A DNA stretch of 64,000 bases from an uncultured Candidatus Saccharibacteria bacterium (GTDB lineage Bacteria > Patescibacteriota > Minisyncoccia > Minisyncoccales > CAZKCU01): NCBI GenBank assembly GCA_964431915.1, contig CAYSLI010000001.1, positions 111,240 to 175,239 on the forward strand, read 5' to 3'. A program made the position numbers and the translations under genes. Within the stretch, counting starts at the first letter, position 1. Each line of letters opens with the position of its first letter. The notes under the pieces were generated by a model. It had not been told where the DNA came from. It ran no database searches and saw only the letters and a program-made list of their open reading frames with translations. Positions 21,351 to 63,121 of the stretch are shown in pieces.

Positions 21351-21404
21351 TCTAAGTTTAACAAATATTTGAAAAAAATCAATTCTCAAGGTATGATTTA
21401 ATTG

Positions 21405-22871
21405 ATGCAAATTCCAAAGGAAGTAAAATTTGTTATTGATAAGTTGAAAAAAGCTGGTTTTGAGGCTTATATTGTTGGAGGATGTGTTCGGGATTTACTT
21501 TTAGGAGTAACACCTGAAGATTGGGACATAGCCACCAATGCTAAACCCGGAGAAATTGGCAAGATTTTTTTGAGGAGTTTTAGTGACAACAAATTTGGTA
21601 CAGTTACTGTTTTAACAGGTAGTGAAAACCAAAAATTAAAAGAAATTGAGATTACTCCTTATAGAATTGATGAGAAATATACAGATAAAAGGCACCCCGA
21701 TAAAATTCGCTGGGCTAAAACCATAAAAGAAGACTTAGCCAGAAGAGATTTTACTATTAATGCTATGGCCTTAGGCCTGTCGGTATCTGATACCGACAAA
21801 CTTAGTGATCCTTTTGAAGGGCAAAAAGATTTAAAAAATAAAATCATCAGAGCAGTTGGTAATCCCGAAGATAGATTTTCCGAGGATGCTCTGAGGATGA
21901 TGAGGGCAGTGAGATTTGCCGTAACCCTGGGCGAGGGGTGGAAGATTGAACCAAAAACCGCCCAAGCTATTAAAAAAAATGCTCCCTGGCTTCAGGCAAT
22001 TTCTAAAGAGAGAATTAGAGATGAACTTTTAAAAATTATTATGGATGAAAAAGCGGCCGATGGCTTAGAGTTTTTGAGAAAACTTTCCCTTTTAAAATAT
22101 ATTGTCCCTGAATTAGAAGAGGGCTATAAAGTAACCCAAAATAAGCACCATATTTATGATTGCTATGAGCATAGCCTTTTTTCTTTAAAATATGCAGCTA
22201 AACGGGATTTTAATAAATATGTCAGATTGGCCAGTTTATTCCACGATATTGCCAAACCCCGGGCCAAAAGAGGCAAGGGACTAAATGCCACTTTTTATGG
22301 CCATGAAATTTTAGGAGCAAAAATGACTTTGCAGATATTAAATCGCTTAAAATTTCCCAAAAAAGATATTGAAAAAATTGCCAAGCTCGTCAGATATCAT
22401 CTTTTTTATTATCATCCAGCAGAAGTTGGGGAGAGTTCAGTCAGAAGATTGGTTCGTCAGGTTGGACCAGAGAATATGGAAGAATTATTGCAAGTGAGGA
22501 TGGCTGATCGAATTGGTTCTGGTTGTCCAAAAGCCGAACCCTATAAATTGCGACATTTGAAATATATTATAGAGAAAGTATCGCAAGACCCGATTTCAGT
22601 AAAGATGCTAAAAATAAAAGGGGAGGATGTAATGAAGATTTTAGATATTCCCGGTGGCCCTAAAATAGGATGGGTTTTAGATATTTTGCTGGGCTATGTA
22701 TTAGCTGACCCTAAAAAAAATAAAAAAGATTTTTTAGAAAAGGAAATTAAGAAATTAGCTAAATTATTAGATAAGAAATTAAAAGAGAAAGCTCAAAAAT
22801 CAAGAGAAGAAAGAGAAAAATTAGAGATGAAAAAAGATGAGATGACAAAGCAAAAGTATTGGGTAACGTAA
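21405..22871 (+). CDS. cca: CCA-adding enzyme / poly(A) polymerase family nucleotidyltransferase with HD domain
   Basis: 'GGCVRDLLLG', 'RRDFTINAMA', and HD 'LFHDIAKP'. ATG at 21405. Confidence 0.85.
   Translation: MQIPKEVKFVIDKLKKAGFEAYIVGGCVRDLLLGVTPEDWDIATNAKPGEIGKIFLRSFSDNKFGTVTVLTGSENQKLKEIEITPYRIDEKYTDKRHPDKIRWAKTIKEDLARRDFTINAMALGLSVSDTDKLSDPFEGQKDLKNKIIRAVGNPEDRFSEDALRMMRAVRFAVTLGEGWKIEPKTAQAIKKNAPWLQAISKERIRDELLKIIMDEKAADGLEFLRKLSLLKYIVPELEEGYKVTQNKHHIYDCYEHSLFSLKYAAKRDFNKYVRLASLFHDIAKPRAKRGKGLNATFYGHEILGAKMTLQILNRLKFPKKDIEKIAKLVRYHLFYYHPAEVGESSVRRLVRQVGPENMEELLQVRMADRIGSGCPKAEPYKLRHLKYIIEKVSQDPISVKMLKIKGEDVMKILDIPGGPKIGWVLDILLGYVLADPKKNKKDFLEKEIKKLAKLLDKKLKEKAQKSREEREKLEMKKDEMTKQKYWVT
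21777..21799. repeat. Palindromic element family B, copy inside the cca CDS
   Basis: ctgtcggtat-ctg-ataccgacaa, encoding 'LSVSDTDKL'. Confidence 0.7.
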
Positions 22872-29789: not shown

Positions 29790-29820
29790 ACTAACTTCAT
29801 TAGAAAATGAAAATTATGAC

Positions 29821-29849: not shown

Positions 29850-29926
29850 TCTAAATAAAAGTTAGTGAATTAGATATTCACTCGACGCTTAATAATTTAA
29901 TATAGGAAGAAAAGAAGGTGATACTG

Positions 29927-30394
29927 ATGGCAAGAAAAGTATTAATTACAGGAATTATTCTTGTCCTGATAGCGTTAGTGACCCTAGGCATTGATATGTA
30001 TAATAGTTGCCCGAGAAAACCAATCTCTGTTTCTAAAACTCCCGAAGAAAAAACATTAGAAATGGAAAAGCTGGAAAAAGTAGGCTATTTGGTAGATTCG
30101 GAAGAATTTTTGGGCGGCTTTACCACGGGCGGTGTAGTAGAAGAAATTTTTGAAAACGCGCTTGTCATCCAAAGACTTAATGAGAAAGGAGAAGAAATAC
30201 TTGTAACGGTTCCGGTTGCTCAAGATGCAGAAATTACTTCCGGGAAGAAGGAAATTGCCTTTGAGGAAATAAAAAAAGGAGATGAAGTTTTTGTTTTGTT
30301 AAACCAGATGCAGGTAATTCTTTCGGGCGTTCCTTTAGAAGGAGTTTACGTTAATGTATCGGCACCAGAAGATTTGTTACTATCAGTGGAATGA
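29927..30394 (+). CDS. N-terminally anchored membrane protein, paralog family (155 aa)
   Basis: 'MARKVLITGIILVLIALVTLGIDM...' is highly similar to ORF 30726..31190. Confidence 0.6.
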   Translation: MARKVLITGIILVLIALVTLGIDMYNSCPRKPISVSKTPEEKTLEMEKLEKVGYLVDSEEFLGGFTTGGVVEEIFENALVIQRLNEKGEEILVTVPVAQDAEITSGKKEIAFEEIKKGDEVFVLLNQMQVILSGVPLEGVYVNVSAPEDLLLSVE

Positions 30395-30409: not shown

Positions 30410-30449
30410 AAAGAGGTAAAAAAGCAATTTTTTTACCTCTTTTACTTTT
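30410..30449 (+). terminator. Hairpin terminator
   Basis: Stem agaggtaaaaa/tttttacctct followed by T-rich sequence. Confidence 0.65.
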
Positions 30450-30470
30450 CTCAATTAGAAATTTTTTCAT

Positions 30471-30499
30471 TTGACAAATTCTCTAAAATGGTGTAATAT
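30471..30499 (+). promoter_or_regulatory. Cassette promoter P3
   Basis: TTGACA-17 nt-TAATAT, in the conserved block. Confidence 0.65.
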
Positions 30500-30544
30500 T
30501 AAATTACTTAGTTAGTATCATTTAAAATTTAAAAGGTGATAGCA

Positions 30545-30694: not shown

Positions 30695-30725
30695 CTTATT
30701 ACCCTAAAAGAAAGGAGTGATAATA

Positions 30726-31190
30726 ATGCGAATAGGAAAAATAGCAATTACAGGAATTATTCTTGCCCTGATAGCGTTAGTGACTCTAGGCATTGATATG
30801 GTTGATACATATAACAGTTATCCAAGAAAGCCAATGTCTGTTTCTAAAACTCCCGAAGAAAAAACACTAGAAATGGAAAAGCTACAGAAGGTAAGTTCTT
30901 TGACAGATTCAGAAGAATTTTTGGGTGGCTTCAGTACTGGCGGTGTAGTAGAAGAAGTTTTTGAAAACGCTCTTGTCATCCGAAAATTTAACGAAAAAGG
31001 AGAGGAAATATTTGTAACGGTTCCGGTTGCTCAAGATGCAGAAATTACTTCCGGGAAGAAGGAAATTGCCCTTAACAAAATAAAACCGGGAGATAAAGTA
31101 TTTATTTTGTTAAATCAAATGCAGGTAATTTTGTCAGGTTGTCCTCTGGAGGGAGTTTATATTGACGTATCGGTGCCAGAGCAGATTTAA
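30726..31190 (+). CDS. N-terminally anchored membrane protein, paralog family (154 aa)
   Basis: 'MRIGKIAITGIILALIALVTLGIDM...'. An AAAGGAG Shine-Dalgarno sequence lies 8 nt upstream of ATG 30726. Confidence 0.6.
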   Translation: MRIGKIAITGIILALIALVTLGIDMVDTYNSYPRKPMSVSKTPEEKTLEMEKLQKVSSLTDSEEFLGGFSTGGVVEEVFENALVIRKFNEKGEEIFVTVPVAQDAEITSGKKEIALNKIKPGDKVFILLNQMQVILSGCPLEGVYIDVSVPEQI

Positions 31191-31238: not shown

Positions 31239-31267
31239 TGCTTTCTCACCTTTAGAAAGTCTTTAAT

Positions 31268-31296
31268 TTGACAAATTTTATAAAATAGTGTAGAAT
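31268..31296 (+). promoter_or_regulatory. Cassette promoter P4
   Basis: TTGACA-17 nt-TAGAAT, in the conserved block. Confidence 0.6.
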
Positions 31297-31350
31297 TCAG
31301 TTAGTAAAATATTTAAAATTCAACATGGAAGAAAGAAGAAAGTGATTGTA

Positions 31351-31608: not shown

Positions 31609-31708
31609 TACCCGAGCTGCAGCGAAGGGTGGAATCGAAGAAGATTTCTTCTTCTCTACCTTCGCTTTCGTTACGCGAAAGTTTGGTGAAGAACGGATGT
31701 TCTTCGAG
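31609..31708 (-). repeat. GC-rich multi-hairpin element family C, about 100 nt, intergenic
   Basis: The reverse complement ends in ...CCCTTCGCTGCAGCTCGGGTA. It contains the hairpins gaagaag/cttcttc, tttcg/cgaaa and gaagaac/gttcttc. Confidence 0.7.
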
Positions 31709-32509: not shown

Positions 32510-35500
32510 ATGAATAAGAAAATAATTCTTATTTCTATAATTTTTGCTTTTCTGATAACTCTTATTCCCTTAAGAGTTGATTGGTCTTTTGATAAATCCT
32601 TAAAGGACGGTCTGGTTAGTACTAAACTGTCTTCGATTACTTATCGCCTAAATTACTGTAGCGCAGGTTGGTATAGCTATAACTGTTCTTGTTCTGGCAA
32701 CTATCGTCAAAGGAAATATTGTACCAGTTATGGCGGCTGTGGTTCCTGCTATAGGTATAAAAACTGTGGCTCCACTACTTATGGTTCCTGGAGCTATTAT
32801 TGTTCAGGGAGTAATTTGCGCCGAAAAAGAACTATTTACTACCGAGGTTGCTCGGGAAACTCTTGTTATTACTATACTGGCACCGGTAGTGAGCATGTAA
32901 GAAGCTGTGGCTCAACTACTTATGGTTCCTGGAGCTATTATTGTTCTGGGAGTAATTTGCGCCGAAAAAGAACTATTTACTACCGAGGTTGCTCAGGAAG
33001 TTCTTGTTATTACTATACTGGCACCGGTAGTGAGCATGTAAGAAGCTGTGGCTCAACTACTTATGGTTCCTGGAGCTATTATTGTTCTGGGAGTAATTTG
33101 CGCCGAAAAAGAACTATTTACTACCGAGGTTGCTCAGGAAGTTCTTGTTATTACTATACTGGCACCGGTAGTGAGCATGTAAGAAGCTGTGGCTCAAGAA
33201 CTTCCACTACTACTTATTACTGCTCCGGAAATACCCTCAAAAAAAAGGTGGTCTATTCCGGAGGCTGCTCTGGGACTTCATGTCGGAGCGACAGCACCTA
33301 CTATTATACTGTAAAAGACTGTGGCTCAAGGACCTGTACCTCTCGCACTTATTATTGTAGTGGAGACCGCCTCTGGTATAAATATACTTGCTCTGGAGGA
33401 TGTTCAGGAACTTCTTGCCGTGCGACCATTAACTACGCTTATTTGTCAAAAGACTGTGGCTCAAGAACTTCCACTACTACTTATTACTGCTCCGGAAATA
33501 CCCTCAAAAAAAAGGTGGTCTATTCCGGAGGCTGCTCTGGGACTTCATGTCGGAGCGACAGCACCTACTATTATACTGTAAAAGACTGCGGCTCAGATGA
33601 GTATGGAAGTTGGGGCAGTAATTATTGTAAATATGGCGATGTTTACCATAAGAGAATTATTGTTTACAGAGGGTGTTCAGGAACTGATTGTTACGAAAAT
33701 ACTGAAGGAGATGAACAAAGAGTTGAATATTGTAGTTTAGGTTGTAAAGAAGGAATGTGTATTACGGGATTATGTATTTCTCATGGTGATTGTGGTAGAT
33801 GCTATTATTGTCAGAGGTGGCCGCTTTGCACTGGCGTCTCTGGGGGTGTACCATGGATAGGTCCGTGCTGTCGTCCCACAGAGGGAGTTAATCAGAATGT
33901 TTGTGGGCAAAACCCTCGCGAGAAAGGTTCTTATTGTTCTCAGCAAGAAGGGTATTATCAAGGTTGCGTTGGTGTCTACAACGCCTGTCATGGAGGAGTT
34001 ACTTGTGGTTATGGAAATGTGTGTAACGTTTTGGAGCACATTTCCGGTTGTGGCAAGATTAATTGCACTTCTGATAATTACTGTGTTGGAAACAAGATTT
34101 ATGCAAAGACTACCTGCTCTGGAGGTTGCTCAGGAGGTGATTGCTTGGAAGATCGCACTTATGAATATTATTTAACTGACTGCGGTCCAAGAACTTACAT
34201 AGATAGTTATTACTGCTCAGGAAATAAGGTTTATAAGAAGAGAGTCTATTCCGGAGGCTGTTCAGGAGGTGAATGCACAGAGGATAGCATTTATACCTAT
34301 TATCAAGAAGACTGTGGGACGAGTGATTATAAATACCGTATTTCAGGAGGCTGGCAGCAAAGGGCGTGGTGTAGTAGAGGTTGCTCAAATGGTTCTTGTT
34401 ATGAAAACTGTGGTTCTTGGTCAAACTATCTACAGGACTGCGGGCACACTTGCCTAAGTCATGGCACAGCTTCTGTTGGCTGGCCTGATTGTTCCTGTAG
34501 CAGACGGAGTCCAGCTTCAGGTTATGAAATAATTGGAAGGTGGAATACCTATGATTGCGGCAATAACTGCACAGGTTACAGAAAAACTGGCTGTTCTTGC
34601 ACAAGTTGGGCTGACCGCTCCTGCGGAGGAGGCAGTTGTTCTGCTTACCAAAGACAGCAAACTCGCACCTGTACCCCTTCTGGCTGTGATAAAGAATCTC
34701 GATGTGTATCTGACTCTGCCTGTGGTTGTTCTTGTACAGGTTGGGTTAACCGCTCCTGTGGTGGAGGCAGTTGTTCTGCCACCCAAAGACAGCAAACTCG
34801 AACCTGTACTCCTTCAGGCTGTGATTCTGAATCTCAGTGCGTGGCTGACAGCGCATGCGTTTCCTCTCCCATTCTTAATTTAACAGCTGATCCTTCTTCA
34901 ATTACCCAAGGACAATTCTCAACTCTTCAGTGGTCTTCTATTAATACAACCAGTTGTACCTGGACAGCCGGTTTATCAGGGGGAGCTGCAACTTCTGGCA
35001 ATAGAGCGGTTAACCCTTCTACTACCACCACTTACTCAATGAGTTGTACTGGTCTTGGTGGAAATGCTTCAGGTAGTGCTATAGTTAATGTTTCTCCATT
35101 AATCAATCAGTCTCCTTCAGCAACTAATCTCAAGGTAGTCCAGCCAGATTATTGTCTTTCCGGGCCAACAGGTTTTTTCTCCTGGACCTTTACTGACCCT
35201 GACCCTGGAGATACCCAATCTGCCTACCGAGTTCAGGTAGATAACAATAGTAATTTCTCTTCACCTGAAGATGATTCTGGAAAAGTAACCTCAAGCTCTA
35301 ATTCCTATGCCACTATCTTGGGTAAATTGAAATATAACAATACATATTACTGGAGATTAAAGGTCTGGGATTCAAAAGGCCTTGATTCTATTTGGATTTC
35401 AGGTCCCAGCTTTACCACTCCAACACATGCCTATCCTGAAATTGACTTTAGCTGGTCTCCATTTAAACCAAGCGTTGACGAAGAGGTTTTATTCGTTGAC

Positions 35501-35728
35501 CAATCAACTGTCTATGGAGGAACTACAAAAGAAAGCTGGTCTTGGACTTTCCAAGATGGCAGCCCGGACAGTTCTGCAGAGCAAAACCCAATAGCCAAAT
35601 TCTCTTCCACCGGCGAAAAAGACATTACTCTCAGAGTTACTGACTCTGATGGTTTCTCCTGTTCTCGCGCTAAAACCTTAAACAGCCAGCTTCCTCTTCC
35701 TATCTGGAAAGAGATTGCGCCATTTTAG
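32510..35728 (+). CDS. Giant cysteine-rich modular surface protein (Cys-module repeats, 2 TSP1-like repeats, Ig-like, FN3-like and PKD-like C-terminal domains)
   Basis: 1072-aa ORF with an N-terminal TM/signal. It has about 10 modules of 44-47 aa built around 'YYCSG..L..K...Y.GGCSG.SC'. The C-terminus 'IDFSWSP...VLFVDQS...WTFQDGS...ITLRVTDSDG' is PKD-like. Confidence 0.8.
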   Translation: MNKKIILISIIFAFLITLIPLRVDWSFDKSLKDGLVSTKLSSITYRLNYCSAGWYSYNCSCSGNYRQRKYCTSYGGCGSCYRYKNCGSTTYGSWSYYCSGSNLRRKRTIYYRGCSGNSCYYYTGTGSEHVRSCGSTTYGSWSYYCSGSNLRRKRTIYYRGCSGSSCYYYTGTGSEHVRSCGSTTYGSWSYYCSGSNLRRKRTIYYRGCSGSSCYYYTGTGSEHVRSCGSRTSTTTYYCSGNTLKKKVVYSGGCSGTSCRSDSTYYYTVKDCGSRTCTSRTYYCSGDRLWYKYTCSGGCSGTSCRATINYAYLSKDCGSRTSTTTYYCSGNTLKKKVVYSGGCSGTSCRSDSTYYYTVKDCGSDEYGSWGSNYCKYGDVYHKRIIVYRGCSGTDCYENTEGDEQRVEYCSLGCKEGMCITGLCISHGDCGRCYYCQRWPLCTGVSGGVPWIGPCCRPTEGVNQNVCGQNPREKGSYCSQQEGYYQGCVGVYNACHGGVTCGYGNVCNVLEHISGCGKINCTSDNYCVGNKIYAKTTCSGGCSGGDCLEDRTYEYYLTDCGPRTYIDSYYCSGNKVYKKRVYSGGCSGGECTEDSIYTYYQEDCGTSDYKYRISGGWQQRAWCSRGCSNGSCYENCGSWSNYLQDCGHTCLSHGTASVGWPDCSCSRRSPASGYEIIGRWNTYDCGNNCTGYRKTGCSCTSWADRSCGGGSCSAYQRQQTRTCTPSGCDKESRCVSDSACGCSCTGWVNRSCGGGSCSATQRQQTRTCTPSGCDSESQCVADSACVSSPILNLTADPSSITQGQFSTLQWSSINTTSCTWTAGLSGGAATSGNRAVNPSTTTTYSMSCTGLGGNASGSAIVNVSPLINQSPSATNLKVVQPDYCLSGPTGFFSWTFTDPDPGDTQSAYRVQVDNNSNFSSPEDDSGKVTSSSNSYATILGKLKYNNTYYWRLKVWDSKGLDSIWISGPSFTTPTHAYPEIDFSWSPFKPSVDEEVLFVDQSTVYGGTTKESWSWTFQDGSPDSSAEQNPIAKFSSTGEKDITLRVTDSDGFSCSRAKTLNSQLPLPIWKEIAPF
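32764..33186 (+). repeat. 3 x 141-bp near-identical tandem repeat
   Basis: ctgtggctc(c/a)actacttatgg occurs at 32764, 32905 and 33046. Each unit is 47 aa. Confidence 0.9.
33187..33588 (+). repeat. 267-bp period repeat, 1.5 copies, with a 135-bp identical block
   Basis: 33187-33321 is identical to 33454-33588. Each block contains an A8 tract (33239-33246 and 33506-33513). Confidence 0.9.
34592..34861 (+). repeat. 2 x 135-bp repeat encoding TSP1-like Cys modules
   Basis: 'CSCT(S/G)W..RSCGGGSCSA.QRQQTRTCTPSGCD.ES.CV.DSAC' occurs twice. Confidence 0.8.
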
Positions 35729-35799: not shown

Positions 35800-35827
35800 A
35801 ACCCCGCTTTTGAATGCGGGGTTTTTT
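35800..35827 (+). terminator. Rho-independent terminator
   Basis: Stem ccccgc/gcgggg followed by TTTTTT. Confidence 0.8.
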
Positions 35828-35854
35828 GACAAACTTTAAAAAATCCTTTAATAT
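35826..35854 (+). promoter_or_regulatory. Sigma70-type promoter for rny
   Basis: TTGACA-17 nt-TAATAT. Confidence 0.6.
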
Positions 35855-35952
35855 TAAAATAGGATAAAATTAAATTCGGACTTCGGTATTAATTCACTAT
35901 AAAACTTTTAATCTTTTGGAAATGTTGAGATACCAAATCTCCGACAAAAAAT

Positions 35953-37482
35953 ATGAATCAATTTATTCCACTTTTAGTGGGCATAGTTTCTGTGGTAATA
36001 GGAGTTGTTTTGGGTTATTATGCTCGTCAGTCAATTGCCAGAAGAGATTACGACACCTTAGAAGCAAAAATTCAAAAAAGAATTTCTCAGGTAAAAACTG
36101 AGACGGGAGCTCTTTTGGCCCAGGCCAAAGAAAAGGCCTCCCAGATTTTAGAGAAAGCTAAAGCTGAGGCAGATACAAGGAGTGAGGAACTTTTTAAAAC
36201 AGAAAGACTTTTACTAAGGAGAGAAAATGTTTTAAATGAGAAGCTTTCAGATTATGAGAAAAAAGAAGCCGAGTTTCGCCAAAAAGTAGAAAAGCTCAAA
36301 GGGATAAAAGAAACTTTAGAAAATCTAAAAGAGAAAGCTCGTGAAAATTTAGAAAAGATTTCTGGACTTTCCAAGAAAGAGGCGCGAAAAGAGTTATTTG
36401 ATGATCTGGAAAAAGCGTACCAGAAAGAAATTTTTGAGAGAATGAAGAAATTAGAATCTGAAGGCCAGGAGCGATTTGAAAAGAGAGCCAAAGAATTATT
36501 AGCTTTATCTATTCAGAAATGCGCCATTTCTCAGGCTCAGGAGATTACTACTACAACCCTATCTTTACCTTCTGAAGAAATTAAGGGAAGAATTATTGGT
36601 AAAGAAGGAAGAAACATTAGAGCTTTTGAAAAATTAACCGGTGTGGAAATAATAGTTGATGAAACTCCCGAAGCTGTGGTTATTTCGGGCTTTGACCCGA
36701 TTAGAAGGCAGATTGCTAAAGTAGCCCTGGAAAAGCTGATCCGGGATGGCAGAATTCATCCAGCCAGGATTGAAGAGATTGTGAAGAGGGCAGAATCGGA
36801 AATATCCTCTCAAATAAAAGAAGCCGGAGAGCAGGCTGTTTATGATGCAGGATTTGTTGGCCTTGATCCAAAGATTATTCAATTGTTAGGAAGATTACGT
36901 TTCCGAACTAGCTACGGCCAGAATGTTTTGCTTCATTCTATTGAAGTTTCTCTTCTGGCTTCAGCTCTTGCTGCTGAAATTGGGGGAAAGATTCAGGTTT
37001 GTAAAAAAGCAGGGTTACTCCATGATATTGGCAAGGCCGTTGATCATCAGGTTGAAGGTTCTCATACTGATATTGGCATTAAAATTTTAGAAAAATTTGG
37101 AGTAGAGAAAGAAGTTATTGACGCTATGAAATCCCATCACGAAGAATATCCCTACGAAAGTTTAGAGGCAATAATTGTTCAGGTTGCTGATCAAATTTCA
37201 GGAGCCAGGCCAGGAGCAAGAAAAGATACCTTAGAGAGTTATCTCAAAAGACTGGGTGAACTGGAGCAGATTGCTAATTCTTTTGCCGGGGTAGAAAAAA
37301 GTTATGCTATTCAGGCTGGCAGAGAGATTCGAGTTTTCGTTAAGCCAGAGGAGATAGATGACCTCCAGGCAAAAAAAATAGCTAAAGATATTGCCAATAG
37401 AATTCAAGAAGAACTAAGGTATCCTGGAGAAATTAAAGTCAACGTTATAAGAGAAAGCAGGGTGATAGAATACGCAAAATAA
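35953..37482 (+). CDS. rny: Ribonuclease Y
   Basis: 509-aa ORF with an N-terminal TM, coiled coil, KH domain ('IGKEGRNIRAFE') and HD domain ('LLHDIGKA'). Confidence 0.95.
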   Translation: MNQFIPLLVGIVSVVIGVVLGYYARQSIARRDYDTLEAKIQKRISQVKTETGALLAQAKEKASQILEKAKAEADTRSEELFKTERLLLRRENVLNEKLSDYEKKEAEFRQKVEKLKGIKETLENLKEKARENLEKISGLSKKEARKELFDDLEKAYQKEIFERMKKLESEGQERFEKRAKELLALSIQKCAISQAQEITTTTLSLPSEEIKGRIIGKEGRNIRAFEKLTGVEIIVDETPEAVVISGFDPIRRQIAKVALEKLIRDGRIHPARIEEIVKRAESEISSQIKEAGEQAVYDAGFVGLDPKIIQLLGRLRFRTSYGQNVLLHSIEVSLLASALAAEIGGKIQVCKKAGLLHDIGKAVDHQVEGSHTDIGIKILEKFGVEKEVIDAMKSHHEEYPYESLEAIIVQVADQISGARPGARKDTLESYLKRLGELEQIANSFAGVEKSYAIQAGREIRVFVKPEEIDDLQAKKIAKDIANRIQEELRYPGEIKVNVIRESRVIEYAK

Positions 37483-37486
37483 TTGA

Positions 37487-37536
37487 AGGTCGCTGAAAGC
37501 TTCGCCTTCATCTCTCATCCTCGCTTTGCTCGGGTA
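37487..37536 (+). repeat. Family C element, degenerate copy
   Basis: ...cttcgccttc...cctcgctttgctcgggta shares the GCTCGGGTA 3' signature. Confidence 0.5.
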
Positions 37537-50608: not shown

Positions 50609-51181
50609 ATGAATCTAAATAAAAAAATAATTTTTACTTCGGAAATCCCTGGGATAATAGGGTTAATTTTTATCTTTCTAATAATTTATCCATTGTTTAA
50701 TAATATTAAAAAAAATTCTGAGACTTTTATTTCTCAAAAAAGAGAATTAGCTTTACTAGAGATTGAAATCGAAAACCTGGAAAAATTTGAAAAGATTTAC
50801 CAGACCCATTACCAAAATTTAGAAAAAATTGATAAATTATTTATTAATCCGGAAATTCCTACAGACATTATTGAATTTGTTGGTTTTCTGAGAAAAATTG
50901 CTAAGGATTCTCAGATTTCGATTGATATTTCCTCCTCGACTCCAAAAAAACAAATTGTCGCTGATCCTTGGTCTTCCATAACTTTTCAGGTGGCTTTAAA
51001 GGGGAGGTTATCTAATTTTGAGAAATTTCTTGAAAAATTAGAAACCAGCCCTTATTTAATAGAAATTCTTAATTTAAATATTAGGAGATTAACCGAAAAA
51101 GGAGTTAAGCCAGAAAAATTTGAAGAATTCTCTCTGGCAGATACTGATATCTCTTTATCGATAAAAGTCTTCACTAAATGA
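50609..51181 (+). CDS. PilO-like protein
   Basis: 190 aa with a TM and coiled coil, positioned after pilN. Confidence 0.5.
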   Translation: MNLNKKIIFTSEIPGIIGLIFIFLIIYPLFNNIKKNSETFISQKRELALLEIEIENLEKFEKIYQTHYQNLEKIDKLFINPEIPTDIIEFVGFLRKIAKDSQISIDISSSTPKKQIVADPWSSITFQVALKGRLSNFEKFLEKLETSPYLIEILNLNIRRLTEKGVKPEKFEEFSLADTDISLSIKVFTK

Positions 51182-51474
51182 AAATTCCCAAAATAAAATT
51201 TAATAAAATTAAAATCTTCTTTAAAAAACTTCCAAGAATTTTAGGGGAGAATACTTTTTTGACTTTCCTGTTTCTTTTATTTTTGTCCCTAATTTTGGGT
51301 GGTATTGTTTTCTATAAATACAGTATTTTGGCAGAGAAAGCAGAACCCCAAATCATTAAAAAACCTCTTCAATTTGAAGAAAAAACCTACCAAAAAATAT
51401 TAAATGAATGGGAGGCCAGGGGAAGAAGATTTGAAGAAACTGAATTAAAAGAATACCCCGATCTCTTTAGGTAA
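51178..51474 (+). CDS. Small single-TM protein, pilus-operon associated
   Basis: 98-aa ORF whose start overlaps the stop of the PilO-like gene. Confidence 0.45.
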   Translation: MKIPKIKFNKIKIFFKKLPRILGENTFLTFLFLLFLSLILGGIVFYKYSILAEKAEPQIIKKPLQFEEKTYQKILNEWEARGRRFEETELKEYPDLFR

Positions 51475-51578
51475 GGCGAAGAGAACTCCGTCCTCTTCTT
51501 CACCCTTCGCCTGCGGCTCGGGTAGGCGAAGATAACTCCGTCCTCTTCTTTAACTTCGCTTCCTACAGAAGCTCGTTG
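51475..51578 (+). repeat. Family C element, two tandem units
   Basis: GGCGAAGAGAACTCCGTCCTCTTCTTCACCCTTCGCCTGCGGCTCGGGTA is followed by the variant GGCGAAGATAACTCCGTCCTCTTCTTTAACTTCGC.... Confidence 0.8.
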
Positions 51579-51618
51579 ACTAAAGTAAGGATTTTAGGTA
51601 GAATGATTGGGTAAAAAT

Positions 51619-51690: not shown

Positions 51691-51694
51691 CATA

Positions 51695-51727
51695 GTAGTC
51701 TGTCGGTATCAAATACCGACAGACTAC
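51695..51727. repeat. Palindromic element family B, copy between two tRNAs
   Basis: gtagtctgtcggtat-caa-ataccgacagactac, a 15-bp perfect stem. Confidence 0.8.
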
Positions 51728-51751
51728 GGACAGACATATTGATAAATTTAT

Positions 51752-53263: not shown

Positions 53264-53338
53264 GCGGGAGTAGTTCAGTGGTAGAACGTCTCGTTGCCAA
53301 CGAGAAGATCGCGGGTTCGACTCCCGTCTCCCGCTCCA
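53264..53338 (+). tRNA. tRNA-Gly (GCC), CCA encoded
   Basis: Acceptor GCGGGAG/CTCCCGC, discriminator T followed by CCA, anticodon loop TTGCCAA. Confidence 0.85.
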
Positions 53339-53348
53339 AGGCCAACCC

Positions 53349-53377
53349 TTGACAAGCTATTGTGGATAAGCTAATAT
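53349..53377 (+). promoter_or_regulatory. Promoter with a DnaA-box 9-mer in its spacer
   Basis: TTGACA-17 nt-TAATAT. TGTGGATAA lies at 53361-53369. Confidence 0.5.
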
Positions 53378-53405
53378 GTTAAAACCCCCTTTCGGGGGTT
53401 TTAAG

Positions 53406-54077
53406 ATGAGTACGAACTTAAATTATCAGGATATTTCCCCTGATGAGGGAAAGTCTCGTGTTTCCATCCCTCTATCGGGGCTTACTATTCTGATTATTAT
53501 AGTAATTGTTGGAATTTTAGTCGGGATTTTACTAATTTTTGAGCCCGCAACAAAAAATGCTGAGGCTAATTTAGTTGAGGGCGAAGAGGATAAATCCTTT
53601 TCTTCCCCTTTCGCTGTTGCTCGGGAGGGCGAAGAAAATAGATTTTCTTCTTCCCCTTTCGCTGTTGCTCGGGAGGTTGAGATTAAAGAAATATCCCAGG
53701 TCTTAGAGAAAGGATTGCCTCTTTTACAAGGAAATAGTCTTTTAGCAATTTCTACTCCTTCTAATCCAGAACCTCAAACCGTCAAAAAAATAAGGGTAGT
53801 TATTACTGCTTATTCTAGTACGATAGATCAAACCGACTTAGATCCTTTTGTAACTGCTGCCGGTACCTGGGTTAGAGAAGGAATTGTTGCTAACAATAAG
53901 TATCCCTTTGGAACAGAAATTAGGATTCCAGAAATCTATGGTGAGAAAGTTTTTGTGGTTGAAGATAGAATGAGTTGGAAAAAAGGGAAATATCATATTG
54001 ATATTTGGTTTCCTTCTTATTGGGAAGCCCTAAATTTTGGAACAAAGAGAACCTACATTGAGGTTTTGGAAAGTTAA
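53406..54077 (+). CDS. Membrane-anchored 3D-domain (MltA/YuiC-like) cell-wall protein
   Basis: ATG at 53406, a TM segment, and C-terminal 'ITAYSSTIDQTDLDPFVTAAGT...GTEIRIP...VVEDRM...HIDIWF'. Confidence 0.75.
   Translation: MSTNLNYQDISPDEGKSRVSIPLSGLTILIIIVIVGILVGILLIFEPATKNAEANLVEGEEDKSFSSPFAVAREGEENRFSSSPFAVAREVEIKEISQVLEKGLPLLQGNSLLAISTPSNPEPQTVKKIRVVITAYSSTIDQTDLDPFVTAAGTWVREGIVANNKYPFGTEIRIPEIYGEKVFVVEDRMSWKKGKYHIDIWFPSYWEALNFGTKRTYIEVLES
53580..53675 (+). repeat. Family C element, 2 x 48-nt in-frame tandem units inside a CDS
   Basis: GGCGAAGAGGATAAATCCTTTTCTTCCCCTTTCGCTGTTGCTCGGGAG occurs twice and encodes 'GEEDKSFSSPFAVARE / GEENRFSSSPFAVARE'. Confidence 0.85.
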
Positions 54078-54154: not shown

Positions 54155-54916
54155 TTAAACGAAGAGAGTCTTGGATGTTGCTCGTTGATTTAAATGCCAA
54201 CCGATTTTTGAGGGATAATTTTGTTTTATATAACCACGCCTTTTAATTGATTTCCATTTCTCAAAAACTTGCCGTTTACGCGAGAGATATAAAGTTGGAT
54301 TATTCCCATACATAAATTCAGCTATTTTTTCACAATCATCAATATAAAAGTAAATCGTATATAAAGGAATTTTTCCTTTCTTATGTTCTTCCTTATGAAT
54401 TGTTTTTAAAGAAATTTTCAAATTTTTGCAAAGTTTCTGATTAAAATCAGTAATAAAAGGTAAACTAGAACTTACAAATCCAGCTTTAATTTGGGGGACT
54501 TTATTGACATTGTAAATATAAATAGAGCCATCACCGTCAAAAAATCCCCGAACAAAATCAGGAAAATATTTATCCGGAACTTTTATTGGATACAAATTAT
54601 AAGTTTTTCTGGGTTGAATTCCTAAATTCAATAAATCTTTAGTTATTATATGGTTACGAATTTGTAATTGATATCCGTTATTATCCGCTTTTCGAGATTT
54701 TTTACTAATCTTATGTTCAGATTCTAGTGTTTCTTTAAGCAAATATAAGTGCTTCAAATCAACAGAAGTTATATTTAATGTAAAAGGATGGCTTTTTCTA
54801 TCTTTACTTATTGCAATACAACCATCGGCTACAATATAACCTAAAACATAACTCATCTCGGAGTTCCATTTTTTAAAGAAGTTTTGGTTAATGTGCCTTG
54901 TATATACATTTCCCAT
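54155..54916 (-). CDS. LAGLIDADG-family homing endonuclease (two-motif, free-standing)
   Basis: 253 aa with 'LGYIVADGCI' and 'FVRGFFDGDGSI'. It starts 14 nt after the tRNA-Leu 3' end. Confidence 0.85.
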   Translation of the reverse strand: MGNVYTRHINQNFFKKWNSEMSYVLGYIVADGCIAISKDRKSHPFTLNITSVDLKHLYLLKETLESEHKISKKSRKADNNGYQLQIRNHIITKDLLNLGIQPRKTYNLYPIKVPDKYFPDFVRGFFDGDGSIYIYNVNKVPQIKAGFVSSSLPFITDFNQKLCKNLKISLKTIHKEEHKKGKIPLYTIYFYIDDCEKIAEFMYGNNPTLYLSRKRQVFEKWKSIKRRGYIKQNYPSKIGWHLNQRATSKTLFV

Positions 54917-55530: not shown

Positions 55531-57072
55531 TTAAAGTTCTCCTTTTTTCCTCTCTTCAGCATAAATTATTAAAACATCATCCTCTTCAATTTTGATATCT
55601 CCTTCATATAATAGACCGCATTCCTCTCCCTTTTTAACTCTTTCTGCGTCTTTTTTGTTTCGCTGGAGATTAATAATCCTTCCCTGACCGACCTTTTCTT
55701 CTCCCCTAAAAATTTCAACTAATGCCCCTTTTTTAATTTCTCCCTCAATAACTTTTCCTCCTAAAATTTGGCGATTTTTCTCAGTTCTAAAAATTGCTGA
55801 AATCTTAACCTTTCCGAAATCAACTCTGACCACTTCTGGCTTAATAATTTTTTCCATTATTTTCCGAACTCCCTCAACTAATTCATAAATTACTTCAAAT
55901 CCTATTATTTTAATTTTTTCTCTTTCAGCTAACAGCTGAGCAATTGGATTTGTTTTTACTCGAAAAGCTAAAACTTGAGCCTTAGCCCCTTTGGCTAACT
56001 TAATGTCAGATTCATTTGTCTCGCCGACCTCAGATTTTAGAATTCTTAAGGCAACTTTTTCTTGGGGAAGTTCCTTTAGAACTTCTTCAATAGCTTCAAG
56101 CGATCCCAAGACATCAGCTTTTAAAATTAAATTTAAGACTCTTTGCGAGGGCTTAACAGAAAATGCTGGTGAAACTTTTTTTTCTGGTTTTTGAAGATGA
56201 TTTTTAGCCAATTCAATATCAGAAAAAACTCTAAATTTCTCTCCGACCTTAGGAACATTTTCAAAGCCAAAAACAACTACCGGCATTGAAGGAGAAGCTT
56301 CTTTTAAAGCAATCTCTTGAAAATTTTCTAAGTTTTTCACTTTTCCAAAACAAGAATCAGTTCCAATGATATCCCTTGGTCTTAAAATTCCATTATCTAA
56401 AAGTAAGGTAGCGGTTGGTCCTCTCTGGGGATCCAAATAGGCCTCAATTACTGCCCCTTCAGCTGGCATTGCTATATTTCCTTTTAATTGCTCCATCTCA
56501 GCCACCAGTAATATTAATTCCAAAAGGCCTTCAATTCCTTGACCGGTCTTTGCTGAAACCTTAGTTGAGGGAACTTTCCCTCCCATTGACTCAACCAAAA
56601 TATTCTCTTGGGATAATTCTCTTTTAACTCTTTCTGGGTCAGCTGTAGGTTTATCAATTTTATTTATTGCCACAATTAAGGGCAGACCTGATTTTTTAAT
56701 ATGGGATAAAGCTTCTTTTGTCTGAGTTTTTACTCCTTCATCAGCCGCCACCACTAAAATGGCAATATCAGCAACTTTGGCTCCCCTGGAACGCATGGCT
56801 GAAAAGGCCTCATGACCGGGTGTATCAATAAAAGTAATTGATTTTCCCTGATGCTCAATCTCATAAGCTCCAATATGTTGGGTAATTCCTCCTGCTTCTC
56901 TTTCAATAATTTTTAGGTCTTTAATTGCTTCAAGTAAACTTGATTTTCCATGATCGATATGGCCTAAAACTACTACTATTGGTGGACGAATTATTAAATT
57001 TTCCTTTTTTTCTGCAATCATAATTAAAAAAGGGCGTTCTTTATCTATTAATTTTTGTCTTTGAAAGCTCAT
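55531..57072 (-). CDS. infB: Translation initiation factor IF-2 (short N-terminus)
   Basis: 513 aa with the GTPase motifs 'GHIDHGKSSLL', 'DTPGH' and 'NKID'. Confidence 0.95.
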   Translation of the reverse strand: MSFQRQKLIDKERPFLIMIAEKKENLIIRPPIVVVLGHIDHGKSSLLEAIKDLKIIEREAGGITQHIGAYEIEHQGKSITFIDTPGHEAFSAMRSRGAKVADIAILVVAADEGVKTQTKEALSHIKKSGLPLIVAINKIDKPTADPERVKRELSQENILVESMGGKVPSTKVSAKTGQGIEGLLELILLVAEMEQLKGNIAMPAEGAVIEAYLDPQRGPTATLLLDNGILRPRDIIGTDSCFGKVKNLENFQEIALKEASPSMPVVVFGFENVPKVGEKFRVFSDIELAKNHLQKPEKKVSPAFSVKPSQRVLNLILKADVLGSLEAIEEVLKELPQEKVALRILKSEVGETNESDIKLAKGAKAQVLAFRVKTNPIAQLLAEREKIKIIGFEVIYELVEGVRKIMEKIIKPEVVRVDFGKVKISAIFRTEKNRQILGGKVIEGEIKKGALVEIFRGEEKVGQGRIINLQRNKKDAERVKKGEECGLLYEGDIKIEEDDVLIIYAEERKKGEL

Positions 57073-57434
57073 ACAGTTTCCATAGCTTTTTCGATGGCTG
57101 ATTTCTCTTCCTTAGATAAAGAATATTTTGAAAGGCTTGCTTTTACTGATTTTCCGTAAATTCTGTTTCCTTCCCGGGTATAAAGACTGGTGATTACTAT
57201 TCCGTCATTATTTCCATCAAGCAAAGCAATAGAAAAACTTTGGTCACTCCCCACTTCTGAGAAAGGATTAAATCTTACTATGCCGACTTTCTGAATTGAA
57301 AACTTACTTTCTTCTTTTAGATTCTCTAATTCTTTTGAAAGTTTTTCAAAGCTTTTCTCCAAATTCTTAAAATAAGCCAAAATCTCCCTAAAGTTCTCTG
57401 GCTCCTTTTTTCTTTTTTTAAAAAAATTGAACAT
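57069..57434 (-). CDS. DUF4446-like protein
   Basis: ATG at 57434 gives 'VRFNPFSEVGSDQSFSIALLDGNNDGIVITSLY'. The longer ORF-track start reads through a family C element. Confidence 0.55.
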   Translation of the reverse strand: MFNFFKKRKKEPENFREILAYFKNLEKSFEKLSKELENLKEESKFSIQKVGIVRFNPFSEVGSDQSFSIALLDGNNDGIVITSLYTREGNRIYGKSVKASLSKYSLSKEEKSAIEKAMETV

Positions 57435-57452
57435 TGAAATAAATTGAAAATT

Positions 57453-57503
57453 GGCGAAGAGAACTTTGTTCTCTTCTTTAACCTTCGCACTTCGTGCTCG
57501 GTT
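57453..57503 (+). repeat. Family C element, intergenic
   Basis: GGCGAAGAGAACTTTGTTCTCTTCTTTAACCTTCGCACTTCGTGCTCGGTT. Confidence 0.75.
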
Positions 57504-57539
57504 CATTGAACATAATTTTCTTTTCTTATACTCTTTTGT

Positions 57540-59188: not shown

Positions 59189-59911
59189 TCATTCAGCATT
59201 TAAAATTCCTAATACACGTTTTAGTTCTTTTGGTAAACCTGACTTGAATTCTTTAACTTGGTTGCTTGGTAATTGAATTTTAAGATAGGTGGCGTGTAAA
59301 AATTGTCTTTTTAATTCTTTAGGGCAGGGCTGGTTTTTAAATCCATATAGTTTGTCACCGGCTATGGGGTGTCCCAAATAAGCAAAATGGGTTCTAATCT
59401 GATGCTTCCTGCCCGAAAGAGGCTTAACCTCAATTAAATCATAATCTTTAAATCTTTGCAACACTTTATATTTGGTAACAGCAATTCTTTTTCCTTGGGA
59501 GCCTGGTTCATGAGGCAAGTATACTTTTTGTTTCCTTCTGTCTCCTGGTGAGCGGCCAATAAGGGTTTCAATTACCCGAGCCGCAGGCGAAGAAAACTCT
59601 GTTTTCTTCTTTACCTCCGCTTTCATAAATGAAAGCTTGGTGGGTGAAGAAGAGGATTTATCCTCTTCGCCTACACCTTTATTATTTTTCAGATTGCCGA
59701 TTGCCAGGGCTAAATATTTCTTTCTTACTTTTCTGTTTTTAAATTGTTCTTGCAAGAAATCTAAGGCCCTATCGTTTTTCGCTATCAATAAAACTCCCGA
59801 AGTGTCTTTATCTAATCTGTGAACCCTTTTTTTAAAGTCGTCAGAATTTACCCCTGCTGGTTTATCAATTACTAAAACATTTTCATCTTCATAAAGAATA
59901 TTAAACTTCAT
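59189..59911 (-). CDS. RluA/RluD-family pseudouridine synthase carrying a 33-aa element-derived insertion
   Basis: 'HRLDKDTSGVLLIAKN' and 'LSGRKHQIRTHFAYLGHPIAGDKLYG'. The insertion lies between 'IGNLKNNKG' and 'VIETLIGR'. Confidence 0.85.
   Translation of the reverse strand: MKFNILYEDENVLVIDKPAGVNSDDFKKRVHRLDKDTSGVLLIAKNDRALDFLQEQFKNRKVRKKYLALAIGNLKNNKGVGEEDKSSSSPTKLSFMKAEVKKKTEFSSPAARVIETLIGRSPGDRRKQKVYLPHEPGSQGKRIAVTKYKVLQRFKDYDLIEVKPLSGRKHQIRTHFAYLGHPIAGDKLYGFKNQPCPKELKRQFLHATYLKIQLPSNQVKEFKSGLPKELKRVLGILNAE
59573..59671 (-). repeat. Family C element, 99 nt, in-frame inside the rluD-like gene
   Basis: The sense strand reads GGCGAAGAGGATAAATCCTCTTCTTCACCC...GCTTTCATTTATGAAAGC...GAAGAAAACAGAGTTTTCTTCGCCTGCGGCTCGGGTA. 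Confidence 0.85.
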
Positions 59912-59986: not shown

Positions 59987-59992
59987 TTGGGG

Positions 59993-60064
59993 TGCGCGTG
60001 GCAGGGATTGAGCCTGCGACCTCGGCTTTATAAGAGCCGCGCTCTACCACTGAGCTACACGCGC
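59993..60064 (-). tRNA. tRNA-Ile (TAT)
   Basis: Acceptor GCGCGTG/CACGCGC, anticodon stem CGGCT/AGCCG, loop CTTATAA. The T-loop CTCAATC is atypical. Confidence 0.7.
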
Positions 60065-60066
60065 AT

Positions 60067-61962: not shown

Positions 61963-62011
61963 TTAGTGAGGTTTAATTTATTAAACCGAAGCTGGAGATG
62001 AAGCTTTAGCT

Positions 62012-63121
62012 TCATGGACTTTCCACTAATTTTAAACTCATTCGGTGTTCTTTTGGGTCAATTGATAAAATCTGAAAATCATATTTTTTATCAATCTCTA
62101 AAATTTCTTCCATTTTAGATTTTGTTCCAAATTCGGAAATATGGACCAGTCCTTGGATTTTTGGGGTAATCTGAATAAAGGCACCAAAAGGATTAAATTT
62201 AGTTACCTTAGCCGAAACCTTATCGCCTTTTTTATATTTTTTCTCAATATTTTTCCAGGGATCTCTCTTTAGAGCTTTTAAAGATAAAAAGACTTTATTA
62301 TCTGAAATTTCAATAATCTTTGCTCGAATTTTTTGCCCAACCTTGACAATTTCAGAAGGGTCCTGAACTATTGCCCAATCAAATTCGGAGATATGGATTA
62401 AACCCTCTAGCCCTTTGCCAAAAACCATGAAAGCTCCAAAGTCAACCAGCCCGCTAATTTCTCCCTCAACTGTATCTCCTACTTTATAGCCCTTTAAAGA
62501 CTCTTTTATTTTCTCAATTTCTTTTGCTTTTTCAGATAAAATAAGAACCCGTTTCCCTTCACCCGGCAGAATCTTGTTTCTTGCTCTACTCGAAATAAAT
62601 TTTCTCTCTTTTTGGGAAAGATTAAGGATTTTTACTTCCAATTCTTTTCCTATAAATTTTTGAAGCCCTCTTAAAATTTTTAATGAATCTCCTCCTTCGA
62701 CCCGAGGATAGTGTTCTGGAGATAATTGTGATACTGGCAAAAAAGCAGGAGTCCCTAAAATCTCTGTCAGTAATCCTCCCTTATTTGCTCCCGAAATTTT
62801 AACTTTCACGGTCTCATTTTTTTCTTTTTTTTCTTTGAGGGCTTCCCAGGTGAGTTCTTGTCCAGCTTGTTTTAAAGATAATTCAATATAGCCTTCTTCA
62901 TTTTCGAGATCTACTATTTTTACAAAAATACTATTACCAATTTTTAAATCTTTTAAACTATTCTTAGCTTCTTGGAACTCTTTTCCATAAATTATTCCTG
63001 TTCCCAGGGGCCCTAAATCTAAAAAAACAGACGAGCGTCCTTTACCAATAATTTGGCCCTCAAGAATTTCACCAACTTTCGGTGGCTTCAATAAATTATT
63101 TTTTTCAAAAATATCCTTCAT
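62012..63121 (-). CDS. rpsA: 30S ribosomal protein S1 (four S1 domains)
   Basis: Repeated S1 motifs ('GEILEGQIIG', 'VEGEISGLVDFGAFMVF', 'VSAKVTKFNPFGAFIQI'). ATG at 63121. Confidence 0.85.
   Translation of the reverse strand: MKDIFEKNNLLKPPKVGEILEGQIIGKGRSSVFLDLGPLGTGIIYGKEFQEAKNSLKDLKIGNSIFVKIVDLENEEGYIELSLKQAGQELTWEALKEKKEKNETVKVKISGANKGGLLTEILGTPAFLPVSQLSPEHYPRVEGGDSLKILRGLQKFIGKELEVKILNLSQKERKFISSRARNKILPGEGKRVLILSEKAKEIEKIKESLKGYKVGDTVEGEISGLVDFGAFMVFGKGLEGLIHISEFDWAIVQDPSEIVKVGQKIRAKIIEISDNKVFLSLKALKRDPWKNIEKKYKKGDKVSAKVTKFNPFGAFIQITPKIQGLVHISEFGTKSKMEEILEIDKKYDFQILSIDPKEHRMSLKLVESP

Follow-up and report, generated by a model that had tools for sequence, protein, structure and literature searches.

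A dispersed two-hairpin repeat family of a Nealsonbacteria-type lineage: probable mobile DNA with REP-like size and RPE-like behaviour

Genomes of the Candidate Phyla Radiation (CPR, or Patescibacteria) are tiny and streamlined, and selfish repeats are expected to be rare in them. Here we describe a family of short, GC-rich, two-hairpin repeats in a 64-kb stretch of CPR DNA (contig CAYSLI010000001.1, positions 111,240 to 175,239; hereafter the window) and compare it with the described systems that it most resembles. Single-strand HUH/Y1 transposition is established for IS608 and ISDra2, which have no terminal inverted repeats (TIRs), carry unlike, subterminal imperfect hairpins, make no target-site duplication (TSD), and use a one-sided target of 4-5 nt, to which a cleavage sequence at the opposite end is related. 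We know of no transposase for a second relevant group, the Rickettsia palindromic elements (RPEs). These selfish palindromes lie both between genes and, frequently, in frame within housekeeping genes that are unrelated to one another, where they add a segment of peptide (PMC10969869). Repetitive extragenic palindromes (REPs) are by definition extragenic and usually bear a GTAG or CGTC tag (PMC3733652); the biology of REPs and RAYTs has been described, and peel-and-paste transposition proposed for REP/REPIN-RAYT systems (PMC3116915, PMC3337134, PMC5581495). Finally, the MITEs (miniature transposable elements with inverted repeats) Correia/NEMIS, ERIC, BOX and Nezha are small and non-autonomous, can lie in or near genes, and can alter expression or make in-frame fusions (PMC10969869).

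The initial annotation of the window had grouped six loci into one repeat family of about 50 nt, and this was borne out by sequence inspection and by three kinds of search: together the loci hold eight clear units and two or three decayed ones. An automated repeat search placed the copies at 51475, 51525, 53627, 57453 and 59586 in a single family (D18), and the pattern CTTCGC-N2-12-GCTCGG occurs four times in the window against 0.03 expected from shuffles. A covariance model (CM) was trained on 19 copies, 18 of them belonging to other genomes and one to the window. This check, which the annotation had proposed along with a scan of relatives, found every copy listed earlier plus one extra decayed candidate at 61963-62021, and copies in several related genomes. 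Units are 45-54 nt long, with main size classes of 54, 48 and 45 nt; their mean GC content of 53%, against 37% in the surrounding DNA, agrees with the description of them as GC-richer than their surroundings. The family accounts for about 1% of the DNA. New and well defined, it joins a REP-like size and a probably REP-like mechanism to behaviour like that of RPEs, in a CPR lineage that has not been cultivated. That it represents mobile selfish DNA we consider very likely; our fuller reading, in which we have moderate confidence, is of a non-autonomous selfish REP/RPE-like DNA element of a Nealsonbacteria-type (CPR/Patescibacteria) lineage, probably moved by single-strand HUH/Y1 transposition.

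Alignment of 83 copies gives the consensus unit (A/G)GGC-GAAGAGnnn-(loop)-nnnCTCTTC-TTC-ACC-TTC-GC-(stem-loop-stem)-GC-TC-GGT. A 9-bp hairpin 1 (hp1) is followed by an interrupted, sequence-variable hairpin 2 (hp2) with an ACC/GGT foot. Across the two hairpins 97.1% of stem cells are paired, with compensatory changes in 12 of the 15 pairs and 148 double-change cells, a level equalled by 0 of 500 shuffles. Hairpin 2 varies freely in sequence and length (GCTTCC/GGAAGC, GTCCCGC/GCGGGAC and GTTTTTAT/ATAAAAAC all occur) and is reduced to GCC-TGC-GGC or GC-TTC-GC in the short classes, while the TTCG and CTCGGT around it are invariant. A third helix pairs the linker ACC with the signature GGT: its variants ACC/GGT, ATC/GAT and ACCC/GGGT account for 16 double changes (0 of 500 shuffles), and the consensus, folded as DNA at minimum energy, contains it too. 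The 3′ signature that had been described, GCTCGG(G/T)T, is present, although it is not a free tail: its GC closes hairpin 2 and its GGT pairs with the linker.

The mutually exclusive folds that had been proposed, in which GGCGAAG pairs with CTTCGCC in an outer helix, found no such support. That helix is paired in 89% of cells only because both of its sides are conserved; it shows no compensatory change and does no better than shuffles, and where the sequence is GGCGATGA, the altered base is matched by a change in its hairpin-1 partner, not in the linker. Stem mismatches in the family comprise 13 G·T and 15 A·C, that is, no wobble excess on the given strand, which argues for a palindrome maintained at the DNA level rather than as selected RNA. 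An Rfam scan, also proposed in the initial annotation, found only tRNAs in the window at gathering scores, and only sub-threshold chance matches at the elements at E up to 1. A Shine-Dalgarno (SD) role for the GGAAG of hairpin 2 was considered and set aside as not needed: most window genes have AT-rich, SD-less upstream regions.

Comparison of orthologous sites provides evidence of mobility. The window is syntenic, at 82-91% identity, with the complete genome of 'Candidatus Nealsonbacteria bacterium ER9H13parc1' (CP179888.1; locus L007), and the ortholog there of the 3D-domain protein gene that carries a double unit at 53580-53675 lacks it, leaving the empty site TTAGTTGAG^GTTGAGATT. Among 3D-domain orthologs 64-98% identical to the window protein, zero, one or two sixteen-residue units are found at this same site, and more than one sub-clade shows such variation. 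L012 likewise has no unit in the spacer orthologous to that of 57453-57503, its empty site being AAAAATT^CATTGAACAT. Differences run in the other direction as well: the CCA-adding enzyme of L009 contains an in-frame copy that its window counterpart (ORF 21402..22871) lacks, and in L007 a composite of two units separates tRNA-Gly from the 3D gene, a place that is empty in the window. The orthologous site that follows a pilus-operon open reading frame (ORF) is filled in both: the window has two tandem units (51475-51578) there, and L007 one unit with two nested insertions. Such unit-exact differences show repeated gain (or precise loss) over 10-15% sequence divergence.

A separate AT-rich motif, made of ATTGAAA/CATTGAACAT repeats, lies in several spacers and once inside a coding sequence (CDS): we noted it at window positions 57400-57452 and 57504-57513, in L012 at about 7420-7470 and 3030-3066, and in L009 at about 4391-4420. 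The GC-rich element is inserted at two different positions inside this motif.

The junctions obey a one-sided rule. Among 187 unique non-tandem sites, the 3′ flank that follows CTCGG(G) has T at +1 in 81%, T at +5 in 67%, G or A at +6 in 61% and 34%, and A at +7 in 94%; WTGA at +4 to +7 occurs at 36% of the sites, compared with 1% in the background. The 5′ flank is unconstrained save for A/G at -1, position -2 being free. We summarize the target as T-WWW-T(G/A)A immediately 3′ of the element, and since both empty sites (L007 and L012) already have this motif, it is part of the target, not of the element. Single units have no TIRs, their ends being GGCGAAG and GCTCGGT. TSDs, which the initial annotation had suggested looking for, did not appear in any consistent form: the junction ambiguity is GAG(G) in one clean empty/filled pair and TT in the other, and flank comparison likewise gave no fixed duplication. 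Apparent duplications of 6-7 nt at 37487 (TAATTGA) and 53580 (GTTGAG) were dropped as TSDs because the L007 empty site already has GTTGAGGTTGAG and the 57453/L012 pair shows just TT.

The target motif is mimicked by the start-codon context TAAATGA, by the element's own 5′ end TAGGCGA, and by the reverse complement of its linker, GGTGAAG, and this mimicry accounts for three recurrent arrangements: copies pile up at a distance of exactly 3 nt from a downstream start codon, form head-to-tail arrays, and nest inverted within one another. Arrays fit the rule because the TAGGCGA of the next unit supplies YGA at +5 to +7, and inverted nesting fits because GGTGAAG supplies TGA. Head-to-tail arrays of two to four units occur at window 51475-51578, in L026 and in L018. 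The composites of about 100 nt at 31609-31708 and 59573-59671, described earlier as having three hairpins, do exist as such, but each turns out to be one unit inserted, inverted, into the linker of another at CACC(C)^CTTCGC. Nested composites measure 99-105 nt, and the inverted termini GGCGAAGA...TCTTCGCC are confined to them. The same architecture is found in a different gene of L028, which an RluD query matches only via the element-encoded peptide, and there are further nested forms in L007, L026 and L028.

The start-codon sites follow from the same rule, since genes here typically begin WWWATGA with AT-rich, SD-less leaders. ATG stands at +4 after the element in 43 sites, 28 of which open real ORFs; genes started in this way include those for UvrA, ThrRS, L36 and a type IV pilin, and a TsaD-like gene. 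The idea of a 'mobile start codon', with the ATG as part of the element, was rejected on two counts: empty sites already carry the motif, and TTGA, TAA or CGA can stand where the ATG does. In the window itself an SD sequence is missing from most genes, which have an AT-rich WWWWATGA upstream and frequently a stop codon that abuts the start or overlaps it as ATGA (e.g. at 32510, 44310, 17695(-) and 4087(-)). The sole clear strong SD seen is at 7660 (AAGGAGGAGG), with weaker purine-rich stretches before the paralogs at 29918 and 30717.

Although most copies are intergenic, about one fifth lie within genes. We count at least 18 independent CDS insertions with at least 40 codons of ORF on each side. 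Pfam-confirmed hosts are AlaRS, ThrRS, UvrA, UvrB (two insertions), UvrC, a phosphoglucomutase/phosphomannomutase and FtsZ; a P-type ATPase and a Clp-type ATPase were added by eye. The intragenic copies are read in four frames, sense as GEEDKSSSxPFAxAR or KAKxTSSSSSPSL and antisense as TELPQEAKVKKRTKFSSP or NRASxGSEGEEE..LFA, and add 16-33 residues to housekeeping proteins when in frame. Survival in coding DNA is partly explained by unit length and open frames: 154 of 216 units (71%; boundaries taken from empty sites) have a length divisible by three, and stop codons are absent from one sense frame in 96% of units and from four other frames in 67-80%.

The family appears to be restricted to one part of the bacterial tree. 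A strict 25-base pattern derived from the window gave 24 matches in one-genome-per-species bacterial and archaeal contigs, all in CPR metagenome-assembled genomes (MAGs): several Candidatus Nealsonbacteria, MAGs labelled only 'bacterium', and others under the name Saccharibacteria; to these last belongs contig L009, which is syntenic with the window. The same pattern occurs in at least 120 metagenome contigs, and the CM detects some 90 copies within the 174 kb surrounding the genome matches and 182 within 630 kb of metagenome loci. A looser pattern gave five matches in viral contigs, all of them due to chance, with neither the hairpin nor GCTCGG.

How might such a unit move? The combination of no TIR or TSD, a one-sided target, maintained hairpins and self-targeting is the sequence-level signature of peel-and-paste transposition, and on this basis we propose that an IS200/IS605-RAYT-type transposase (HUH/Y1) would mobilise the element in trans, as a single strand, recognising its folded hairpins together with a target or cleavage motif on one side only. 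The element lands immediately 5′ of a pre-existing T-WWW-T(G/A)A, with neither a TIR nor a consistent duplication, and copies within genes persist where the reading frame is kept. Viewed on the flipped strand, the arrangement is TCA/TTA-WWW-A^CCGAGC-hp2′-...-hp1′-CTCTTCG-CCTA^ (^ marking the element's ends), in which the target resembles the far-end sequence, a likeness also shown by the two cleavage sites, left and right, of IS200/IS605 elements. The involvement of a Y1/HUH enzyme is the more tentative part of this proposal, at somewhat below even odds.

Candidate enzymes are encoded in the lineage. Y1_Tnp (PF01797) RAYT-like genes of about 235-255 aa are present on five element-bearing metagenome contigs (L100, L129, L067, L089 and L071) and in a Nealsonbacteria genome (L151), and their family has more than 5,000 relatives, the named ones including Nealsonbacteria, Harrisonbacteria and Wolfebacteria. 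A regular expression for HUH plus Tyr matched none of the first 391 ORFs; the same expression found the RAYT-like genes when run on the metagenome loci. Each of these genes is bracketed by its own, different palindromes of about 25 nt with the form AATCT-stem-loop-stem-AGATT (L100:560-620 and 1340-1410; L129:978-1010 and 1718-1750; L067:2306-2350; the flanks of L071:1501-2235; L151:9960-9995, 10193 and 10715-10745). The RAYT-flanking hairpin in L100, L129 and L151 precedes (A)TTGAG, a sequence similar to the target of the element. The RAYT cassettes of L100 and L129 share one site, preceding TTGAGTTTTCCACA, but face opposite ways and differ in their hairpins.

Several observations weigh against the reading of a transposed, RAYT-mobilised element. 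None of the six RAYT-like Y1_Tnp loci (about 1 Mb searched) is flanked by the element, no copy occurs in the 20 kb around the Nealsonbacteria gene in L151, and no split, gene-carrying version (5′ half, genes, 3′ half) was found in our searches. The filled/empty differences alone cannot separate insertion from precise deletion. The target rule is statistical: about 40% of sites have no G at +6, and some lack the motif entirely. Finally, the L007 composite beside tRNA-Gly (L007:2600-2760, reverse strand; compare window 53320-53345) is bordered by two copies of 9 nt from the 3′ end of the tRNA (CACCCGCTC), of which the one nearer the tRNA has no encoded CCA, and this duplication is unexplained by a no-duplication rule.

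A candidate for a split element, at position 2257 of L011, proved to be a whole unit of the GGCGATGA subfamily lying over the 3′ end of a radical-SAM gene. This GGCGATGA...GCTCGCGTA copy is seen in two genomes (L011:2255-2305 and L017:872-922), where it overlaps the end of the AmmeMemoRadiSam-like gene and provides its final ~10 codons and stop codon.

Set beside the described systems, the family shares features with each and matches none in full. The likeness to RPEs is one of behaviour: both colonise housekeeping genes in frame in a reduced, AT-rich genome. RPEs, though, measure about 100-150 bp and are found in Rickettsia, whereas the present units, from CPR bacteria, have 45-54 nt, or 99-105 nt when nested; the one-sided target motif and the precise placement before start codons also set our family apart. 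With REP/REPIN-RAYT systems it shares short, GC-rich, imperfect palindromes at high copy number, hairpins kept by compensatory change, REPIN-like inverted doublets, and RAYT-like Y1_Tnp genes in the same lineage and on the same contigs. REPs, however, are 20-40 nt long with one hairpin, in contrast to 45-54 nt with two distinct hairpins and an ACC/GGT foot; our element starts RGGCGAAG, with no GTAG or CGTC tag, and has about one fifth of its copies within genes; and REP families normally flank their RAYT, whereas the RAYT-like genes here are flanked by other palindromes. All four sequence-level features of IS608 and ISDra2 are found in the element, which also invites comparison with IS200/IS605 elements and their derivatives without genes, palindrome-associated transposable elements (PATEs), yet there is no tnpA or tnpB between or beside its ends, it is far smaller than known PATEs, and T-WWW-TRA, its target, is both longer and less strict than those of the TTAC or TTGAT types. 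Like Correia/NEMIS, ERIC, BOX and Nezha, it is a small non-autonomous repeat next to or within genes; those elements have TIRs and (for Correia) TA duplications, or a modular structure, and the single unit shows neither of the two features that we tested. The initial annotation's view of a mobile, lineage-specific, REP/MITE-like element therefore holds for mobility and lineage specificity, as seen in the dispersal, the filled and empty sites and the 0/1/2 polymorphism, but not for strict membership of either class, given the missing TIR, consistent TSD, GTAG tag and, in the roughly 1 Mb searched, element-flanked RAYT, and the ~20% intragenic share. In full-text literature searches, no account of repeats of this kind from Nealsonbacteria or CPR bacteria was found.

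The alternative that survives best dispenses with a dedicated transposase: slippage, hairpin template switching, microhomology copy-paste or gene conversion would spread the units, and the 'target' would be microhomology with the element's 5′ end (YGAAG). The 3′ flank is often like that end (TGAAG or CGAAG compared with GGCGAAG); zero, one or two units at one site, and arrays of three to four (L026 and L018), are as expected of slippage; and no cognate transposase has been found. Slippage is nevertheless unable to seed unlinked sites in more than 200 different contexts, placement relative to T-WWW-TRA is near-nucleotide even where the likeness to the 5′ end amounts to just 'GA', and boundaries are identical at independent sites. 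We regard this explanation as unlikely.

The copies before start codons invite two further thoughts. The match between T-WWW-TRA and the SD-less start context might mean that an HUH/Y1-moved, CPR-specific two-hairpin cassette rebuilds the 5′ leaders of essential genes and, having open frames and a length divisible by three, also generates surface insertions in housekeeping proteins, as a semi-domesticated, vertically persisting system that is REPIN-RAYT-like but intragenic. We think this extension of the transposition model quite unlikely; if true, the cassette would set translation or mRNA stability of essential genes. Alternatively, as the initial annotation had also suggested, the repeats might be structured RNAs: selected cis-acting motifs serving as 5′ leaders of SD-less genes, as 3′ stabilisers or terminators, or as RNase Y processing sites. 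Strong covariation in three helices would suit this, as would the 28 sense copies exactly 3 nt before real start codons, the copies that adjoin stop codons, and the possibility that leader structure matters where most genes have no SD. Against it stand the near-equal G·T and A·C mismatches, the copy at 57453, antisense to its flanking genes, the occurrence of both orientations inside CDSs, translated in four frames, the differences in presence among close orthologs, the absence of an Rfam match, and the persistence of window copies whose hairpins have decayed. We find a selected RNA very unlikely as an account of the family, although the start-codon copies may have a secondary, exapted RNA role.

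Still less probable, to our minds, is a classical MITE, that is, a deletion derivative of an insertion sequence (IS) with a DDE transposase, with TIRs, cut-and-paste movement and a TSD. The inverted termini GGCGAAGA...TCTTCGCC of the ~100-nt composites look the part, and TA often stands at both ends of short-class units (TA^GGCG...GGG^TA). The large majority of copies, however, are single units with unlike ends, the junction ambiguity (GAG(G) once, TT once) leaves no fixed duplication, the 5′ flank is motif-free beyond -1 while the 3′ flank is strongly constrained, and no parent IS was seen. Barely credible is a coding module selected for the peptide GEEDKSSSxPFAxAR, with non-coding copies as pseudo-copies: in-frame copies in many proteins, open frames and the 71% share of multiples of 3 nt fit it, yet the same DNA is read in four frames into unrelated peptides, the majority of copies are intergenic, base pairing and not codons is conserved, and orthologs function with 0, 1 or 2 units.

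If a selfish element of the REP/RPE type is the correct reading, this would be a second, independent case of Rickettsia-type selfish DNA in protein genes, in an unrelated reduced genome. The family also offers a compact, sequence-defined substrate (two hairpins and a one-sided target) for testing the RAYT-like Y1 enzymes of uncultivated bacteria. In practical terms, such repeats can break assemblies, create spurious ORF extensions (e.g. ORF 57069..57506) and account for lineage-specific protein insertions, and their presence/absence patterns are strain-level markers.

The window copies illustrate the range of forms. The tandem pair consists of a plus-strand unit at 51475..51524 (CM 51473-51522, 40.5 bits), of the short hairpin-2 class GCC-TGC-GGC, which begins right after the TAA stop codon (51472-51474) of ORF 51178..51474, and a second plus-strand unit at 51525..51578 (CM 51523-51579, 68.3 bits), of the long class GCTTCC-TAC-AGAAGC, 40 nt upstream of tRNA-Arg(TCT). 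The two copies in the 3D-domain protein gene 53376..54077 are in frame, as had been claimed, and comprise two 48-nt plus-strand units, EGEEDKSFSSPFAVAR at 53580..53627 (CM 53578-53617, 27.2 bits) and EGEENRFSSSPFAVAR at 53628..53675 (CM 53626-53675, 30.8 bits). A single intergenic unit of 51 nt at 57453..57503 (+; CM 57451-57504, 51.7 bits) runs antisense to the minus-strand genes on either side, at a distance of 19 nt upstream from the start of a DUF4446 gene, and folds into hairpin 1 and an extended hairpin 2 (z = -3.7).

The other composite that had been called in-frame is indeed so, adding 99 nt, or 33 codons (GVGEEDKSSSSPTKLSFMKAEVKKKTEFSSPAARV), to the RluC/D-like gene 59189..59911(-). 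Its inner unit, at 59586..59641 (+; CM 59584-59643, 58.5 bits), is translated antisense within the insert; the outer unit, at 59573..59671 (-; CM 59626-59673(-), 30.7 bits), is split at CACCC^CTTCGCC by the inverted inner one. The DNA fold of the whole has an energy of -22.9 kcal/mol (z = -6.0), and the window protein is about 38 residues longer at the insert than the solved RluC/RluD structures. The intergenic composite, of 100 nt, has an inner unit at 31632..31689 (+; CM 34.3 bits) and a partly decayed outer unit at 31609..31708 (-; CM 31609-31659(-), 16.7 bits; fold z = -3.5) that terminates in GCTCGGGTAA, followed by CTAAAG. More decayed still is the plus-strand copy at 37487..37536 (CM 17.8 bits, E = 5e-4), which has lost hairpin 1 and has no stable fold; it retains CTCGC-TTT-GCTCGGGTA and an ATTGA target motif, and lies 4 nt past the stop codon of the RNase Y gene 35953..37482 (Pfam RNase_Y_N/HD/KH). 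The extra candidate at 61963..62021 (-; CM 17.3 bits, E = 7e-4) is weak and we list it tentatively: it occupies the spacer between the stop codon of the S1-protein gene and the start of FtsH, with the FtsH ATG immediately 3′.

The window as a whole is 37% GC, with a GC skew that tracks gene orientation, and is dense with housekeeping genes, among them those for PilM/N/O-like proteins, IF2, RbfA, FtsH, L19, RNase Y, S1 and the RluC/D-type pseudouridine synthase, together with 19 tRNA genes. The same sequence is also present in the metagenome assembly Logan SRR8556479. One of the tRNAs, at 59990-60065 (-), was called by ARAGORN as tRNA-Ile with anticodon TAT; this tRNA is rare in bacteria, where AUA is normally read by a lysidine-modified CAT tRNA.

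Other repeated sequences in the window fall outside the family. The palindrome GTAGTCTGTCGGTATCAAATACCGACAGACTAC occurs at 51692-51728, between tRNA-Arg and tRNA-His, and at 24060-24090; its arms are 94% complementary and it starts with GTAG, like classical REPs. A second palindrome, AAATTACAGAGAACCGTTCTCTGTAATTT, is paired at 24290-24319 and 29378-29407, and both pairs may be terminators or a second REP-like family. A promoter-like motif, TTGACAAATTCTCTAAAATGGTGTAATAT (-35 box plus extended -10), is repeated upstream of small paralogous genes, at 29398-29458, 29796-29856, 30446-30506, 31243-31303 and 35825-35861; the paralogous ORFs 29918..30394 and 30717..31190 are 86% identical over 300 nt. 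Among the larger repeats, the 1072-aa ORF 32510..35728 contains internal tandem repeats at 32761-34857, with units of 141 nt and 135 nt that are 81-99% identical, and the 806-aa ORF 15272..17692(-) has a 411-nt duplication and a long stretch of purine/pyrimidine-rich, Glu/Lys-type low-complexity sequence (16100-17650). Lastly, a free-standing LAGLIDADG-type ORF at 54155-54916 (-), with faint matches to Pfam LAGLIDADG_1/3, lies between the 3D-domain gene and a tRNA pair.

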